This document shows, one piece after another, positions 25,456 through 32,000 of a stretch of DNA of 32,000 nucleotides. This DNA comes from Candidatus Kuenenia stuttgartensis (GTDB lineage: Bacteria > Planctomycetota > Brocadiia > Brocadiales > Brocadiaceae). A program made the position numbers and the translations under genes. The stretch lies in assembly GCF_900232105.1 (NCBI RefSeq), contig NZ_LT934425.1, positions 1,980,001 to 2,012,000 on the forward strand, written 5' to 3'. The notes under the pieces were generated by a model, which did no database searches, was not told the origin of the DNA, and saw nothing but the letters and a program-made list of their open reading frames with translations. Position 1 is the stretch's first letter. Every line of letters starts with the position of its first letter.

Positions 25456-25502
25456 GGCAGCCCTGAGCTGTTCCGGAATTCGGGGGACACCATACGTAGT
25501 TA

Positions 25503-25531
25503 TTGACTCAATGTTGAAAAACAGCTAAGAT
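25503..25531 (+). promoter_or_regulatory. Candidate promoter of the type I R-M operon
   Basis: TTGACT (25503-25508), a 17-nt spacer and TAAGAT (25526-25531), about 130 nt upstream of the hsdM start. Confidence 0.3.
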
Positions 25532-25661
25532 TCCCCGTGGTCAGGATTGCTCGTGTGGCAGTCCCAGTCTCATGCTATGACGTCAGAATTCTGCTATACC
25601 ATAATTATGCAGTTTAATGCCGGACGGCAAGTGAAAATATTTTTACCCGGGAGAAACCGCC

Positions 25662-27116
25662 TTGTTTGAACAAACCTTCAAGAATATAGACGACATCCTC
25701 CACAAAGACGCCGGTTGCAGCAGCGAACTGGACTATGTGGAGCAGACCTCGTGGATTCTTTTCCTGAAATATCTGGATGATTTTGAGAAGGATAAGAAAA
25801 CCGCGGCAGAGCTTGCCGGTAAATACTATGAAGGTATTATTGACAAACAATACAAATGGGAAGTCTGGGCAGTGCCCAAAGGCAAAGACGGCAAGATCGA
25901 TCATCATAAGGCGCTTACCGGCGATGACCTGAAAGACTTTGTTGACCACAAGCTGTTCCCTTACCTGAAAAAATTCAAAACGTCAGCCGAAAGCGCCGAC
26001 ACCATCGAATACAAGGTCGGCGAGATTTTCAGCGAGCTGAAAAACAAGATTCAGAGCGGCTATAACCTGCGCGAAGTCATTAATCGTATCGATGAACTCC
26101 GCTTTCGCTCCCACGCTGAGAAGCATGAGATGTCGCACCTGTACGAAAACAAAATCAAGAATATGGGCAACGCCGGCAGAAACGGCGGCGAATACTACAC
26201 GCCCCGTCCGCTCATAAAAACCATCGTGAAGGTGGTTGCACCCACCATCGGCAACAAGGTGTATGACGGCGCGGTCGCTTCGGCGGGCTTCCTGGCGGAG
26301 GCTTTTGAATATCTGAAAACCAGCAAGAACCTAACCACCAAAGATGCGGAGACACTTCAGAAAAGAACCTTCTACGGAAAGGAAAAGAAGTCGCTCGCCT
26401 ACATCATCGGCACGATGAACATGATTCTGCACGGCATCGAAGCGCCCAACATCGTGCATACCAACACGCTGACGGAAAACATGGCCGATATCCAGGAAAA
26501 AGACCGTTACGACGTCATCCTTGCCAATCCCCCGTTTGGCGGTAAGGAACGCACCGAGGTGCAGCAGAACTTCCCTATCAAAACCGGCGAAACGGCTTTT
26601 CTGTTCCTTCAGCATTTCATCAAAATCCTGAAAGCGGGCGGAAAAGCGGGTGTGGTGATTAAGAATACCTTTCTTTCCAACACTGATAATGCGTCCGTAT
26701 CTTTGCGCAAACTGTTATTGGAAAGTTGTAATCTGCATACGGTGCTGGATCTGCCCGGCGGCACCTTTACCGGTGCGGGCGTCAAAACAGTGGTGCTGTT
26801 TTTTGAAAAAGGCGTACCAACTCAAAACGTCTGGTTTTATCAGCTCAATCTGGACAGAAAACTCGGCAAGACCAACCCGTTGAACGAAAACGATCTGGCG
26901 GAGTTTGTAGAATTACAAAAGACCAAGGCCAATTCGGAAAACTCATGGTCGGTGAATGTGGCCGATGTAGATAAAACCACATTCGGCCTGTCGGTGAAGA
27001 ATCCGCATAAAAAAGATGAACCCGCGCTACGTGAACCGGGAATAATTTTGGACGAGATGAAGGCGCTGGATGAAGAGAGTGAAATGATTTTCAAAAATAT
27101 TTTAAGGATTTTATGA
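25662..27116 (+). CDS. hsdM: Type I restriction-modification system, DNA methyltransferase subunit M
   Basis: 484 aa. The TTG start has a GGGAG RBS 9 nt upstream. HsdM_N block FEQTFKNIDDILHKDAGCSSELDYVEQTSWILFLKYLDDFE, then GEYYTPRPLIKTIV, and catalytic motif IV ILANPPFGG. Motif I reads YDGAVASAGFL (see findings). Confidence 0.95.
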   Translation: MFEQTFKNIDDILHKDAGCSSELDYVEQTSWILFLKYLDDFEKDKKTAAELAGKYYEGIIDKQYKWEVWAVPKGKDGKIDHHKALTGDDLKDFVDHKLFPYLKKFKTSAESADTIEYKVGEIFSELKNKIQSGYNLREVINRIDELRFRSHAEKHEMSHLYENKIKNMGNAGRNGGEYYTPRPLIKTIVKVVAPTIGNKVYDGAVASAGFLAEAFEYLKTSKNLTTKDAETLQKRTFYGKEKKSLAYIIGTMNMILHGIEAPNIVHTNTLTENMADIQEKDRYDVILANPPFGGKERTEVQQNFPIKTGETAFLFLQHFIKILKAGGKAGVVIKNTFLSNTDNASVSLRKLLLESCNLHTVLDLPGGTFTGAGVKTVVLFFEKGVPTQNVWFYQLNLDRKLGKTNPLNENDLAEFVELQKTKANSENSWSVNVADVDKTTFGLSVKNPHKKDEPALREPGIILDEMKALDEESEMIFKNILRIL

Positions 27117-28153
27117 GAGCTATTCTAAAATATTCAAAAAGGCAGATTGATAAAGCTGGTGGTGTTTTGTCAGGCGTGCCTGATCAAAAGATGAACAAGG
27201 ATCAAGCTATAGAAATTCTAGAAAACTTTCGATCATTACATATCCACCCTCTTATTGTATTTAGAGTGTCTTTGCAAAGAAAGTCTGAAATTATTTCTGG
27301 TGATGTACTAATTTCACAACGATTAAAAAGAGCACCATCAATTGTCAATAAATTAAAAATCCAGAAAAAGATGTCTTTATCGCAGATGCAGGATGTGGGT
27401 GGTTTGCGTATCGTACTGAATAATCTTGACGAAGTATATAAGCTTAAAGATCTAATACGTGCTGGCGAGACACAAATCGCCTTCAAATCTATTCTTTTAA
27501 AAGAAATAGATTATATTAATAACCCTAAAGAAAGTGGATACAGAAGCATTCATTTGATTTATAAATATAATAAAAATGCTCCTAATGCGAGTCAGTGTCG
27601 AATTGAAATACAGATTAGAACAAAAATACATCACGCATGGGCGACGGCAGTTGAAGTTATAGGCACGTACCTCAGGCAACCATTAAAACAAAGTTTTGGG
27701 GATAAAGAACTATTAGATTTATTTAAAGAAATAAGTAAAGTATTTATTTTATTGGAAAACAAAAAAATGGATATTTCTTTATTCAAAAATACAGTAAATA
27801 GAATAGATGAATTAAAATTGCGCGACAAATTACAAGGATTTTCAATGGTAACAAGGATTTCAGATCAGAACGATGAAAATAAAAAAGGTAAATATTTTCT
27901 TATATCCTTGAATTTTAAGAATAAGACATTGACTGTAAAAAGATTCACTGCCTCAAAGTTAGATCAAGCAAATAGTGAATATTCTGAATTAGAAAAAAAA
28001 TACTTGAATGATAATAATACGGAAGTTGTTCTTGTATCAGTAGATGATATTAATAATCTAAGAAAATTGTATCCTAATTATTTCTTGGACACACAAGAAT
28101 TTGTAAAGTTCCTAGACATAGTGAACAAGGAAATTGAAAAATATGAAAACTAA
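27113..28153 (+). CDS. RelA/SpoT-domain (alarmone-synthetase fold) protein with uncharacterised C-terminal domain; candidate toxSAS/CapRel-like effector
   Basis: 346 aa. All synthetase-fold blocks are present: RLKRAPSIVNK (RxKx3Sx3K), DVGGLRIV, ESGYRSIHLIY and IEIQIRTKIHHAWATAVE. There is no HD hydrolase domain. ATGA overlap with hsdM and an 11-nt overlap with hsdS. The gene is strongly AT-rich. Confidence 0.85.
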   Translation: MRAILKYSKRQIDKAGGVLSGVPDQKMNKDQAIEILENFRSLHIHPLIVFRVSLQRKSEIISGDVLISQRLKRAPSIVNKLKIQKKMSLSQMQDVGGLRIVLNNLDEVYKLKDLIRAGETQIAFKSILLKEIDYINNPKESGYRSIHLIYKYNKNAPNASQCRIEIQIRTKIHHAWATAVEVIGTYLRQPLKQSFGDKELLDLFKEISKVFILLENKKMDISLFKNTVNRIDELKLRDKLQGFSMVTRISDQNDENKKGKYFLISLNFKNKTLTVKRFTASKLDQANSEYSELEKKYLNDNNTEVVLVSVDDINNLRKLYPNYFLDTQEFVKFLDIVNKEIEKYEN

Positions 28154-29303
28154 CTGGCAAATAAAAAAACTCGGCGAGGTTTGTGAAATCAAACCACCAA
28201 AAAAAGAAGCAAGAGACCGATTGAATGATGATGACATTGTCTCGTTTGTGCCTATGGAAGATTTGGGAATATTGACAAAGAATTTTATTGCAACAAAGGA
28301 AAGACCGCTGAAAGAAGTATCTGGAAGCTATACGTATTTTTCCGATAATGATGTGCTTCTCGCAAAAATTACGCCTTGTTTCGAAAATGGCAAAATTGGA
28401 ATTGCTCGCAATTTAAAGAATGGTATTGGTTTCGGCTCAAGTGAATATATTATTTTTCGATCACGTGGCGAAGTAATACCTGATTACTTGTACTACTATT
28501 TAGCTCGTGACCAGTTCAGGCAAGACGGCAAAAAAGTGATGACTGGCGCAGTTGGCCATAAACGAGTGCCGAAAGACTTTGTTGAAAACCAAAAAATACC
28601 TTATCCCAATTCCCTCCCCGAACAACAGCGTATCGTTGCCATTCTGGAGGAGGCTTTTGCCGCCATCGCCACAGCAAAAGAAAAAACCGAAAAGAATCTG
28701 CAAAACGCCCGCGAGCTTTTTGCGTCGTATCTGCAGAGTGTCTTTGCCAATCCGGGGGACGGGTGGGAAGAGAAGACATTGGGGGAATGCTTTAAATTAA
28801 AAAGTGGCGATAATATAACAAGCAAAATGATGATTGAGAATGGAAAGTATCCTGTTTATGGTGGTAATGGAATCGCGGGGATGTATAATAAATTTAATCT
28901 ATCAGGGAGCAATGTAATTGTAGGTAGAGTCGGAGCTTTATGCGGAAATGTAAGGCATATAGAAGAGGCTATTTGGCTCACTGATAATGGATTCAAAATA
29001 ACAGATTGTAAATATGATTTTGATAATGCGTTTCTTGCATATTTATTGAACTTAAAGAATCTACGAAATTATGCAAGGCAAGCAGCACAACCAGTCATTT
29101 CAAATTCATCATTAGAAGAGGTGTTACTACAATTTCCAAAATCATTAAAAGACCAAAAATCCATCGTCACCAAACTCGATGCGCTTTCCGCCGAAACCAA
29201 AAAGCTCGAGGCCATTTACCGGCAAAAGCTCGCAGACCTGGACGAATTGAAAAAATCGGTATTGCAAAAGGCGTTCACAGGACAATTGACAATGGAAAAT
29301 TGA
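28143..29303 (+). CDS. hsdS: Type I restriction-modification system, specificity subunit S
   Basis: ATG28143 is preferred over TTG28134. Two target-recognition domains (WQIKKLGEVCEI... and WEEKTLGECFKLKSG...) are separated by the conserved helices LPEQQRIVAILEEAFAAIATAKEKTEKNLQNARELF and LKDQKSIVTKLDALSAETKKLEAIYRQKLADLDELKKSVLQKAF. Confidence 0.9.
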   Translation: MKTNWQIKKLGEVCEIKPPKKEARDRLNDDDIVSFVPMEDLGILTKNFIATKERPLKEVSGSYTYFSDNDVLLAKITPCFENGKIGIARNLKNGIGFGSSEYIIFRSRGEVIPDYLYYYLARDQFRQDGKKVMTGAVGHKRVPKDFVENQKIPYPNSLPEQQRIVAILEEAFAAIATAKEKTEKNLQNARELFASYLQSVFANPGDGWEEKTLGECFKLKSGDNITSKMMIENGKYPVYGGNGIAGMYNKFNLSGSNVIVGRVGALCGNVRHIEEAIWLTDNGFKITDCKYDFDNAFLAYLLNLKNLRNYARQAAQPVISNSSLEEVLLQFPKSLKDQKSIVTKLDALSAETKKLEAIYRQKLADLDELKKSVLQKAFTGQLTMEN

Positions 29304-29313
29304 GAATGGGTGA

Positions 29314-29499
29314 TTGAAAACGAGCAATGTGGTCAAAGAGAAGTCGTTTTACGTTCGCGGTGCGGGTAGTGGACCGGCTACCGAACGTTGTCAGCGCCTG
29401 AATACCAGCGAAGCGGAGTCGGCCATCAACGACAACAAGGAACTCTTGAAACTGTTAACCCGTATCATCAACTCAACTAAACAAGGAATGGACACATGA
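29314..29499 (+). CDS. Doubtful small ORF (61 aa, TTG start) in the hsdS-fic spacer
   Basis: It is an open frame only, with no motif and no RBS. It is chained by an ATGA overlap to a further 35-codon ORF (29496-29603) that ends 2 nt before the fic ATG. Confidence 0.2.
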   Translation: MKTSNVVKEKSFYVRGAGSGPATERCQRLNTSEAESAINDNKELLKLLTRIINSTKQGMDT

Positions 29500-29571
29500 C
29501 CGCTGTCAATTACCAATTGTCCACTGAATACCGTGAAATTGGCTGTTTTTTCTTAGATTTTCACGATTATG

Positions 29572-29599
29572 TTGACAAAAGAGTGAAAGATTTTATACT
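29572..29599 (+). promoter_or_regulatory. Candidate internal promoter for fic (possibly giving a leaderless transcript)
   Basis: TTGACA (29572-29577), a 16-nt spacer and TATACT (29594-29599). The fic ATG at 29606 sits about 7 nt downstream and has no Shine-Dalgarno sequence. Confidence 0.3.
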
Positions 29600-29605
29600 G
29601 TAGCT

Positions 29606-30487
29606 ATGGCAAAAATCTTACATGTTTTTAATTCAATCAATCGCTTGAGAGAGCGGTATTATGTTGCGGCGGTCGGTAAACAATCGCTTTTGGATTTATT
29701 GAGCGAAGCGGAGGTTGCCGAGCAGGTGTATAACTCTAACGCCATCGAGAACAGCACCCTCACCCTTGAAGAAACTGAAAAAATCCTTTTGCAGATACAT
29801 TTAGACAGATACATCACGGAAAGAGAAATCTTTGAAGCAAAAAATCTCGCACGGGTAGTTTCTTACATCAATATCAAGGCCAAAGAACAAGAGCTTACCC
29901 TTGAGGTTATGCTATCGCTTCACAAGATGCTTATAGCGAATATCAGGGATGATATCGCCGGCAGATTTCGCAAGGACGGTGAGTGGGTCAGGGTTGCAAA
30001 CCACATAGCGCCAGACCCAAAAGAAGTGGCAGGAAGATTGGAAAAAATGCTTGCCGGATATAACGCCGCCAGCCATGAAAATATTATAAAACGTATTGCG
30101 CGGCTGCATCTTACCTTTGAACACACCCACCCGTTTGTTGATGGCAATGGCCGTATCGGAAGGGTAATAAATAACTATTTGCTTATACGGGAAGGCTTTG
30201 TGCCGATGAATATTAAATTCATTGACAGGAAGATGTATTACGAGGCGTTTAAGGAGTTTGACGAAAAAGGCACTGCCAAAATCATGGAGGAAATAGTCGG
30301 CAAAGCGCTTACGAATAGTTATCACAAGAGACTTGCGTATCTGGAAGGAGCACACATTATGACGCTTGCTGAATATGCAAAAAAGCATAAAGTATCGCAC
30401 TCTAATTTGATAAATAAAGCACATCGCCAAACTATAGAAGCCTTTTTTGAAAAAGGCGTTTGGAAGATTGGAGATTACAAACCATGA
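29606..30487 (+). CDS. Fic family protein (AMPylase-type active site, class II N-terminal inhibitory motif)
   Basis: 293 aa. Canonical Fic motif HPFVDGNGRIGR (HxFx[D/E]GNGRxxR). SNAIEN near the N-terminus fits the [S/T]xxxE[G/N] inhibitory helix. The C-terminal ~60 aa is HTH-like. Confidence 0.9.
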   Translation: MAKILHVFNSINRLRERYYVAAVGKQSLLDLLSEAEVAEQVYNSNAIENSTLTLEETEKILLQIHLDRYITEREIFEAKNLARVVSYINIKAKEQELTLEVMLSLHKMLIANIRDDIAGRFRKDGEWVRVANHIAPDPKEVAGRLEKMLAGYNAASHENIIKRIARLHLTFEHTHPFVDGNGRIGRVINNYLLIREGFVPMNIKFIDRKMYYEAFKEFDEKGTAKIMEEIVGKALTNSYHKRLAYLEGAHIMTLAEYAKKHKVSHSNLINKAHRQTIEAFFEKGVWKIGDYKP

Positions 30488-31920
30488 ACGAAGCGGAACA
30501 CCCCTATTCAAAGATAAAAGCCATTATCAAGCAGGGCAAAGGGTTGACCGTTGAGTTCAAGGAGTGTAATACCGCCCTCAACAAAGATATTTACGAGACG
30601 GTGTGCGCCTTCCTGAACCGCTTCGGCGGCGAGCTTCTGCTTGGCGTTAGAGATGACGGCGTGATAACCGGTATAGTCCCTGAGTGCCTCCACCAGATCA
30701 AAAATGATTTTACGACAGCCGTCAATAATCCACAGAAAATCAGCCCGTCGTTTTATCTCTCAATGGATGAGGCCGTAATCGACGGGAAAACCATTCTCTC
30801 CATTTACATCCCCGAAAGCTCCCAGGTTCACCGCTGTAACGGGAAAATATACGACCGGAATGAAGACGGTGATTTCAATATCACGGACAACCACAACCTT
30901 GTATCCGCACTTTACCTGCGAAAGCAGATCGGCTACTCAGAAAACACTATTTACCCATATACTGAACTTGCCGATCTGCGGCCTGATGTTATAGCAAGAG
31001 TTCGAAAAATGGCTTTGCTCCAGTCGGAAAACCACCCATGGGGCGCTATGAGTGACCTTGACCTTTTGAGAAGCGTTCAGTTGTATAGGAAGGATTTTCA
31101 AACCGGGAAAGACGGTTTTACGCTTGCCGCAATACTGCTCTTTGGAAAAGACGAGACCATTCTATCGGTAGTGCCGCATTTCAGAATCGATGCCATTCTG
31201 AGACGGGACAACATCGACCGTTATGACGACCGTGACGATATCCGCACGAATCTCATCGAAAGTTATGACCGCCTGCTACGATTTGGAGAGAAACATCTGA
31301 ACGATCCGTTTTATCTGGAAAATGGCCAGAGGATAAGCCTGCGCGGCCATATTTTACGGGAAGTAATCAGCAATATCCTTATCCACCGCGAGTATGCCAA
31401 TGCGTTTCCAGCGAAGTTCGTCATTGATAGAGAAAAACTTTTCACGGAGAACAGCAATAAACCTCACGGGTATGGCATGATTGATCCGTCACATTTTACG
31501 CCCTATCCAAAAAATCCTTCTATTGCGCGATTATTCAGGGAAATTGGACGGGCGGATGAGCTTGGGTCTGGTGTTAGGAATCTGTTTAAGTATTGCAAGG
31601 CCTATTGCGGCCACGATCCGCAACTCATAGAACAGGATATTTTCAAATTCATCCTGCCGCTTACCGGGGAAGCTACCCCTCAAGCTACCCCCCAAGCTAC
31701 AGGGGAAGACGAACGGACAAAAAAAATAATGAATTACTGTCTTAACCCAAGAACAAGAGAGGAAATACAGGAGTTTACCGGTTACAAAGACAGAAAACAT
31801 TTTCGTTTAGAAATCTTACAGCCGCTTCTTGATAAGGGCTTGCTGCACCCGACTATACCCGATAAACTGACAAGCCCGAAACAGAAGTATTACTCTGCAA
31901 AGAAACGAGAGAACCTATGA
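30484..31920 (+). CDS. AlbA_2 (Schlafen-type) domain / HATPase_c_4 (RecG-C-terminal-like) / winged-helix protein
   Basis: ATG30484 is preferred (ATGA overlap with the fic stop). AlbA_2 pattern LTVEFKECNTALNKDIYETVCAFLNRFGGELLLGVRDDGVITGI. Later LREVISNILIHREYANAFPAKFVI...ELGSGVRNLFKYC is typical of the 'putative ATP-dependent DNA helicase RecG-like transcriptional regulator' family. The C-terminus is wHTH-like. ATGA overlap with hsdR. Confidence 0.8.
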   Translation: MNEAEHPYSKIKAIIKQGKGLTVEFKECNTALNKDIYETVCAFLNRFGGELLLGVRDDGVITGIVPECLHQIKNDFTTAVNNPQKISPSFYLSMDEAVIDGKTILSIYIPESSQVHRCNGKIYDRNEDGDFNITDNHNLVSALYLRKQIGYSENTIYPYTELADLRPDVIARVRKMALLQSENHPWGAMSDLDLLRSVQLYRKDFQTGKDGFTLAAILLFGKDETILSVVPHFRIDAILRRDNIDRYDDRDDIRTNLIESYDRLLRFGEKHLNDPFYLENGQRISLRGHILREVISNILIHREYANAFPAKFVIDREKLFTENSNKPHGYGMIDPSHFTPYPKNPSIARLFREIGRADELGSGVRNLFKYCKAYCGHDPQLIEQDIFKFILPLTGEATPQATPQATGEDERTKKIMNYCLNPRTREEIQEFTGYKDRKHFRLEILQPLLDKGLLHPTIPDKLTSPKQKYYSAKKRENL

Positions 31921-32000
31921 ACGAAGCGGAAACCAGAGCGGAACTGATTGACCCGAAGCTCAAAGAAAGCGGCCGGGGCGTGGTGGACGGGTCAAAAATA
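31917..32000 (+). CDS. hsdR: Type I restriction enzyme, R subunit (5' end only; runs off the window)
   Basis: MNEAETRAELIDPKLKESGRGVVDGSKI is the characteristic HsdR N-terminal (HSDR_N) opening. Confidence 0.85.
   Translation, partial: MNEAETRAELIDPKLKESGRGVVDGSKI

Follow-up and report, generated by a model that had tools for sequence, protein, structure and literature searches.

A predicted CapRel-type toxin-antitoxin gene between hsdM and hsdS of a type I restriction-modification operon in Candidatus Kuenenia stuttgartensis, probably exchanged independently of the adjacent target recognition domain

Several type I restriction-modification (RM) operons carry defense genes, among them PrrC in EcoprrI and DarTG2 in the RRDM island of enteropathogenic Escherichia coli (PMC12255303), as well as TgvAB, which is type I RM-embedded in VPI-2 of Vibrio cholerae (bioRxiv 10.1101/2024.04.04.588119). 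Residence within a BREX, DISARM or type I RM system was the basis on which the PDC families were defined (Payne et al. 2024, bioRxiv 10.1101/2024.01.29.577857). The closest described protein to the one considered here is CapRelSJ46 of Salmonella phage SJ46 (PDB 7ZTB and 9ERV; Zhang et al. 2022, PMC9712102), whose functionally tested residues are R79 and R116 (the adenine-coordinating arginines), Y155 (the G-loop tyrosine), and Y352 and Y355 (the YxxY neutralization motif) (PMC9712102). We analyzed a stretch of 32,000 nucleotides of the Candidatus Kuenenia stuttgartensis genome (contig NZ_LT934425.1, positions 1,980,001 to 2,012,000; referred to below as the window), in which a type I RM operon carries a RelA/SpoT-like gene, the Rel gene, in the junction of hsdM and hsdS. 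A preliminary description of the window had noted a sharp AT-rich block at 27080 to 28605, covering the 3' tail of hsdM, the Rel gene and the first target recognition domain (TRD1) of HsdS, and had proposed that a single recombination event imported the Rel gene together with TRD1. Based on composition, breakpoints, homology, residue conservation and the lack of linkage between Rel and TRD1, all of which were observed directly, we conclude that the block likely comprises two neighboring modules, exchanged independently of each other, in a type I RM operon that is itself horizontally mobile.

The features of the operon on which this conclusion depends are, in window positions, as follows.

25478 to 25661, plus strand: left edge and leader of the mobile type I RM island, where homology to Brocadia-type relatives and to locus L188 starts
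25662 to 27116, plus strand: hsdM, 484 amino acids, the GC-rich backbone gene (Pfam N6_Mtase and HsdM_N; PADLOC MTase_I, 7.6e-158)
27077 to 27116, plus strand: variable 3' tail of hsdM, the last ~13 codons, apparent upstream recombination zone of the cargo slot
27113 to 28153, plus strand: Rel gene, 346 amino acids, predicted CapRel-type fused toxin-antitoxin (PF04607, PDC-S33, 7ZTB/9ERV)
28136 to 28190, plus strand: conserved 5' end of hsdS (MKTNWQxKKLGEV), apparent downstream recombination zone of the cargo slot
28143 to 29303, plus strand: hsdS, 386 amino acids from the ATG at 28143 (Pfam Methylase_S; PADLOC Specificity_I)
28179 to 28598, plus strand: TRD1, HsdS amino acids 13 to 152, GC 0.38, present in relatives without the Rel gene
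28599 to 28760, plus strand: HsdS central conserved region, GC 0.52, 88 to 90% nucleotide identity to L021 and L031
28761 to 29150, plus strand: second target recognition domain (TRD2), GC 0.34, with relatives that differ from those of TRD1
29151 to 29303, plus strand: HsdS distal conserved region, GC 0.46

The left edge of the island lies 23 nucleotides past the stop of EamA, and the blastn alignments of L021, L022 and L188 all begin there, at 25478; a promoter-like site is found within the leader at 25503 to 25531. The ATG of the Rel gene overlaps the hsdM stop by 4 nucleotides (ATGA), and its last 11 nucleotides overlap the start of hsdS, for which gene calls on near-identical contigs use the same ATG at 28143. 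The HsdM and HsdS subunits expected of a type I RM system are present, the latter with two TRDs and its conserved regions.

The N-terminal RelA/SpoT-type synthetase (toxSYNTH) domain of the Rel protein matches PF04607 (4.2e-21, residues 69 to 179), and the PADLOC hidden Markov model for PDC-S33 (PDLC04999), which is a candidate family, fits the protein end to end (1.5e-104; residues 4 to 338 on positions 5 to 342 of a profile of 349). A profile of 27 Rel homologs aligns with 7ZTB and 9ERV, the Salmonella tRNA pyrophosphokinase CapRel, over residues 2 to 334 (1.7e-50), and identity to CapRelSJ46 is ~31%. The best PDB match that Foldseek finds for an AlphaFold2 model of the Rel protein (predicted local distance difference test score, 80.9) is likewise 7ZTB, at full length (363 columns, template modeling score of 0.64); housekeeping small alarmone synthetase structures match only the N-terminal 190 columns of the model. 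The CapRelSJ46 residues R79, R116, Y155, Y352 and Y355 correspond to R70, R99, Y143, Y320 and Y323 in the Rel protein, and all five are invariant in the 27 homologs. A fused C-terminal antitoxin/sensor is indicated by the 7ZTB alignment, which extends to residue 334, and by YPNY at residues 320 to 323, the counterpart of Y352/Y355. As judged by sequence and predicted fold, the Rel gene is a full-length CapRel-type fused toxic small alarmone synthetase (toxSAS) toxin-antitoxin, and the same evidence ties PDC-S33 to the CapRel family; in a literature search, the name PDC-S33 turned up in no paper. By homology, the toxSAS N-terminal domain would pyrophosphorylate the tRNA 3' end and so halt translation, while the C-terminal pseudo-zinc-finger and YxxY domain would auto-inhibit the enzyme by blocking its ATP site until a phage protein binds, and the release of the toxin would provide abortive-infection defense.

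The Rel protein thus resembles CapRelSJ46 in its full-length homology, in the order of its parts (a toxSYNTH domain and then a C-terminal sensor/antitoxin) and in the key arginines, tyrosines and YxxY motif. In contrast to CapRelSJ46, which is prophage-encoded and stands alone, it is translationally coupled within a type I RM operon, is 27 amino acids shorter, and belongs to a subclade (at least 65% mutual identity) whose members lie mostly behind hsdM. With PrrC, DarTG2 and TgvAB it shares the placement of an abortive-infection or second-line effector inside an hsd operon, at a site described as a probable recombination hotspot, but those genes lie between hsdS and hsdR, whereas the Rel gene lies between hsdM and hsdS. 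The Rel protein has no homology to PrrC, DarT or GmrSD, and a PADLOC scan of the protein gave only PDC-S33 and a marginal Cas3 match.

The AT-rich block is evident in a profile of guanine-plus-cytosine (GC) content taken in 150-nucleotide sliding windows along the stretch and in a comparison of the block with 1525-bp windows of the host genome (4.4 Mb, a single contig, 41.1% GC). The GC content of the block is 0.321, where the genome averages 0.411, and just 0.66% of the genome windows reach a value this low. In the sliding profile, hsdM has values of 0.45 to 0.55 up to ~27000; GC then drops to 0.31 to 0.37 over 27000 to 27650 and to a minimum of 0.21 to 0.27 over 27650 to 28150, rises to 0.34 to 0.41 over 28150 to 28550, and is back at 0.47 to 0.51 by 28500 to 28800, with ~0.50 reached by 28600. 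A second dip, to 0.29 to 0.38, covers the TRD2 region at 28800 to 29150. At third codon positions (GC3), hsdM has 0.614, the 99.6th percentile among 1718 long open reading frames (ORFs) of the genome, and the Rel gene has 0.248, the 0.5th percentile, so that hsdM lies far above and the Rel gene far below what is typical of this genome. Codon positions 1 (0.40) and 2 (0.25) of the Rel gene are likewise poor in GC, and the 3' half of the gene has only ~0.25. The sliding profile, the genome-window ranking and GC3 all bear out the sharp AT-rich block of the preliminary description, and they agree with its view of TRD2 as a further AT-rich block between GC-richer conserved regions. The block is not uniformly low, however: an unnoticed step at the Rel/hsdS junction separates the Rel gene, with a GC content of 0.30, from TRD1, with 0.38.

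Alignment to the two closest genome relatives, L021 and L022, which lack the Rel gene, maps both breakpoints. L022 aligns with the window at 92% nucleotide identity over 25478 to 27076 and resumes at 83% over 28612 to 29275; L021 aligns at 91% over 25478 to 27079 and resumes at 28614. These positions are within a few bases of the edges first drawn by eye at ~27080 and ~28605. A 30-nucleotide sliding comparison places the upstream break at ~27075, with identity to L022 falling from 0.93 at 27042 to 27071 to 0.53 at 27072 to 27101, and the alignments of most relatives end at 27070 to 27102. Parts of the preliminary description thus hold: the Rel gene is a cassette of foreign origin that entered by recombination, with its upstream break in the last ~12 codons of hsdM (~27076 to 27102), and 28605 marks a true recombination boundary, at which TRD1 and the central conserved region meet. 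Since neither the cargo nor the TRD1 of the window is shared by L021 and L022, these two loci cannot distinguish one event from two.

Loci with more similar TRD1s make that distinction. A search with TRD1 alone retrieved closer homologs (86 to 95% amino acid identity), and the slot contexts of these were inspected. In L188 (TRD1 94% identical to that of the window) the hsdM-hsdS slot holds a gene for a 696-amino-acid DUF87/HerA-like ATPase, in L194 (95%) a TIR-domain gene lies directly before hsdS, and in L195 (86%) the slot holds a RhuM gene; in L191 (92%) and L192 (89%) the slot is empty, and hsdM leads directly into hsdS. Nucleotide identity over TRD1 is 93% for L188 and L194, 87% for L191 and 83% for L192. 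L188 aligns with the window at 91% nucleotide identity over 25478 to 27102 and at 93% over 28136 to 28721, while its cargo is unalignable. On the hsdS side, homology restarts at 28136 for L188 and at 28143 for L194, which is the hsdS start codon. Because the backbone and TRD1 of L188 are equally close to the window and yet its cargo is different, the exchanged unit is the Rel ORF alone. A single event that imported both Rel and TRD1 does not fit this locus, and the downstream break of the cargo is at 28136 to 28142 rather than at 28605.

The distribution of the two features leads to the same result. Rel and TRD1 occur together in 0 of 196 loci, which comprise three sets that were each gathered by similarity to one feature and which include five distinct close TRD1 contexts; Rel (at least 60% identity) is found in 26 of these loci besides the window's own and TRD1 (at least 60%) in 15. 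Among the Rel-bearing operons, hsdS is in view for 8 distinct types. None of these has the window's TRD1, and four (L102/L181, L103, L105 and L184) have other DNA or genes between Rel and hsdS. The suggestion that the effector travels with, or is matched to, this TRD1 is contradicted by the absence of shared loci and by the occurrence of TRD1 with TIR, with RhuM or with no cargo. No homolog of this TRD1 was linked to a RelA/SpoT gene among these loci, an outcome that the preliminary description had itself counted against linkage.

The low GC content of TRD1 was considered as a mark of co-transfer with Rel and was rejected on the basis of L188 and of a survey of 63 related loci. In these loci, mean GC is 0.351 for TRD1 and for TRD2, 0.421 for hsdM and 0.423 for the central conserved region, and TRD1 has a lower GC content than hsdM in 95% of them. 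Where hsdM is GC-rich (e.g., L021, L022, L064, L075 and L092, all without Rel), the gap is 10 to 20 points. Since AT-richness of TRDs is family-wide, the composition of the window's TRD1 is no evidence for co-transfer with Rel. At 0.38, it resembles backbone-type TRDs, while the TRD1s of Rel-bearing operons of the Candidate Phyla Radiation (CPR) have 0.25 to 0.31. TRD2 has yet other nearest relatives (L022, 85% amino acid identity; L035, 84%; L044, 79%). TRD shuffling in HsdS subunits is a classical pattern of type I RM families, and the window's HsdS differs from it in nothing unusual: the nearest relatives of its TRD1 are not those of its TRD2, and both domains are flanked by conserved regions prone to recombination. 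Homologs of the window's TRD1 (64 to 67% amino acid identity) were also seen in the TRD2 position, after the central conserved region, in five loci (L023:3251-3670, L052:9082-9501, L072:9030-9449, L081:9043-9453 and L086:9082-9501), so this recognition domain serves in one half of HsdS or the other.

The closest relatives of the Rel protein (71 to 78% amino acid identity) are metagenomic, and the named ones all belong to CPR/Patescibacteria (Moraniibacteria, Pacebacteria, Uhrbacteria, Magasanikbacteria and Portnoybacteria). The maximum-likelihood tree places the window's Rel within a clade whose members, where named, are CPR without exception; the smallest well-supported set that contains it has support of 97/90. 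CPR operons have Rel in the same slot with the same overlaps: hsdM, a 4-nucleotide overlap, Rel, an 11-nucleotide overlap, and hsdS. Rel is also found behind two other HsdM types (L102/L181 and L107), which are 28 to 32% identical to the window's HsdM. The subclade lies directly behind hsdM in 9 of 11 distinct loci, and distant homologs (34 to 41% identity) adjoin hsdM in 0 of 73. Homologs at 65 to 67% identity occur outside RM operons, where they adjoin transposase or recombinase genes. The GC content of the Rel gene is 0.24 to 0.33 in all 13 loci examined, which is near that of the host elsewhere and makes it an outlier only in the window. A search of 57 related genomes for the Rel gene gave one distant match only (31% identity).

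Three observations concern individual Rel loci. In L185, an Omnitrophota contig in which Rel lies outside an RM operon, an upstream frame at 2597 to 2660 (…KKIILKEIKRVI followed by a stop codon) ends in the same ATGA overlap; this 20-codon frame was considered as a relic hsdM tail carried with the cassette, and the similarity was too weak to use. In some CPR operons (L181:4752-6352 and L184:2064-4535), 3 to 4 small ORFs without a Pfam match lie between Rel and hsdS and are possibly further uncharacterized embedded cargo. In several Uhrbacteria assemblies (L015-L018:4620-6004), the hsdM before Rel is called as two pieces (350 and 123 amino acids), while in L019 and L020 it is intact (482 amino acids), which is either a frameshift variant or an assembly difference.

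The backbone of the operon has a different set of relatives. The window's HsdM is 74 to 93% identical at the amino acid level to that of 80 loci (L021 to L100) from many bacterial and some archaeal phyla, and its best matches are two Candidatus Brocadia assemblies. The distant hosts include metagenome-assembled genomes of Methanosarcinaceae, Thermoplasmata and Aenigmatarchaeota; this spread, as judged by sequence similarity, points to unusually frequent transfer of the operon between phyla and domains. Rel is in the hsdM-hsdS slot of none of these 80 relatives. In most of them hsdM is followed directly by hsdS, and ~21 have other cargo in the slot. Ten cargo ORFs were tested, and 6 gave identifiable families: KilA-N (PDC-S22), Bro-N (PDC-S13), RhuM (PDC-S05), YhcG nuclease (PDC-S02) and a DUF4062/HATPase_c_4 protein. 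The hsdM-hsdS junction is therefore a cargo hotspot that holds many alternative defense candidates.

The course of the swap (its mechanism, its host and which way the gene moved) is inferred from these data. The first module is a single-gene CapRel-type cargo cassette, from ~27077/27103 to 28135/28142 in the hsdM-hsdS junction, and it probably comes from a gene pool of low GC content in which every member with a name is CPR/Patescibacteria. The swap most likely took place by recombination between the 3' end of hsdM and the conserved first ~50 nucleotides of hsdS, where positions 28135 to 28186 are 94% identical even to the Rel-linked CPR locus L103, and translational coupling is kept on both sides. 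The second module is TRD1 (28179 to 28598), which is AT-rich, as the TRDs of this family are everywhere, and which belongs to the resident backbone lineage, as its presence in L188 shows.

Three other explanations were weighed against this one. A single event with crossovers at ~27080 and ~28605, which would have brought in Rel and TRD1 together and perhaps an effector matched to its TRD1, would account for the loss of homology to the two closest genome relatives (L022 and L021) over exactly 27077 to 28611 and for the fact that Rel and TRD1 are both under genome GC. We consider it quite unlikely, because L188 combines a closely similar hsdM (91% nucleotide identity) and TRD1 (93%) with different cargo, because the same TRD1 is found with TIR, RhuM or nothing, because each of the 8 Rel-bearing operon types whose hsdS is in view has another TRD1 and four have Rel and hsdS separated, and because the GC content of this TRD1 fits neither Rel nor the CPR TRD1s. 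It is also unlikely, if somewhat easier to accommodate, that there was no recent swap here and that the whole mosaic operon (hsdM, Rel, hsdS, Fic, AlbA_2 and hsdR) arrived as one island, its mixed composition having been assembled long ago in other hosts, with Rel and the TRDs resisting amelioration. A search of 33 related genomes, including three of the same genus, did not find the island as a whole, the GC3 values of hsdM and Rel are both atypical for the genome, and the order hsdM-Rel-hsdS, with the same overlaps, is both widespread and old, all of which is consistent with arrival as a unit. Such an arrival is, however, compatible with two exchanged modules and merely shifts the swap to an earlier host, and it leaves the different cargo on the 9%-diverged backbone of L188 unexplained unless swaps are both frequent and recent.

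The remaining alternative, that composition here reflects selection (low expression, or proteins rich in Lys, Asn and Ile) and not foreign origin, appears extremely unlikely. The low GC of Rel at codon positions 1 and 2, and TRDs that are AT-rich in hosts of every GC content, are what it would predict, but a GC3 of 0.25 against 0.61 in translationally coupled neighbors is a difference at synonymous sites, Rel has the GC content of its host in CPR loci and departs from it only here, and the Rel phylogeny is nested in a CPR-labeled clade. Several points do weigh against two independently exchanged modules. The last ~12 codons of hsdM are 0.5 to 0.7 identical to both the backbone and the Rel-linked lineages and are therefore assignable to neither parent. 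No Rel donor closer than 78% amino acid identity (~72% nucleotide identity) was found by which to orient or date the transfer, and no intermediate with the window's exact backbone and an empty slot was found. An ancestor may have had Rel together with this TRD1, with Rel replaced later in the lineages of L188, L194 and L195; even in that order of events, the cargo moves without TRD1. The enzymatic activity and defense role of Rel are predicted by homology, and the operon may be decaying, since its hsdR is frameshifted and truncated.

With the two-module explanation, the locus is of an already known kind, a defense cassette in a known embedding slot beside an ordinarily shuffled TRD, and no new type of system. 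The attractive idea of an abortive-infection effector that co-travels with a DNA-specificity domain is corrected and is replaced by a clean natural case of modular exchange, in which one hsdM backbone and one TRD1 occur with five or more slot states (CapRel, DUF87 ATPase, TIR, RhuM and empty). A candidate family so far untested, PDC-S33, is now linked to the mechanistically understood CapRel family, and a CapRel gene of apparently CPR-like origin is seen in a genome for which the nearest hsd relatives are of Brocadia type. These results should help with annotation and with picking embedded candidates to test. The Rel subclade is joined by the ATGA overlap to the stops of two unrelated HsdM families (28 to 32% mutual identity). 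By analogy with PrrC, one doubtful possibility is that the RM-associated CapRel subclade (at least 65% identical, mostly CPR) is specialized for type I RM operons as a guard, which would fire on an attack on the RM complex (e.g., by anti-restriction proteins) and not on capsid protein. If that were so, the conserved hsdM tail and hsdS 5' end would be the handles of a cassette-exchange system for guards.

The remainder of the operon within the window contains the following features.

29314 to 29499: 61-codon ORF, no family match
29606 to 30487: Fic (PADLOC PDC-S04)
30460 to 31920: AlbA_2/Fic-like_C protein
from 31917: hsdR, broken

No intact HsdR is encoded: a frameshift near 32140 splits an 87-amino-acid N-terminal piece from a 667-amino-acid body, and homology to intact HsdR stops at residue 617 of ~767 (coordinate ~33889 when the window is extended), beside a convergent ORF. 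The same 87 + 667 split is present in independent near-identical metagenome contigs. An exact 15-mer, ATGAACGAAGCGGAA (MNEAE), opens both the AlbA_2-like gene (30484 to 30498) and hsdR (31917 to 31931), with 2 matches found and 0 expected. The pair resembles a scar left when inserted cargo duplicated the start of hsdR; unlike this pair, the inspected junction sequences at the edge of the Rel cassette showed no duplicated gene start. The Fic (PDC-S04) and AlbA_2/Fic-like_C cargo of the hsdS-hsdR interval is 86 to 90% identical at the nucleotide level in several backbone relatives (29524 to 32000 against L031, L022, L023 and L036). These two genes, unlike the Rel gene, are long-standing passengers of the operon lineage.

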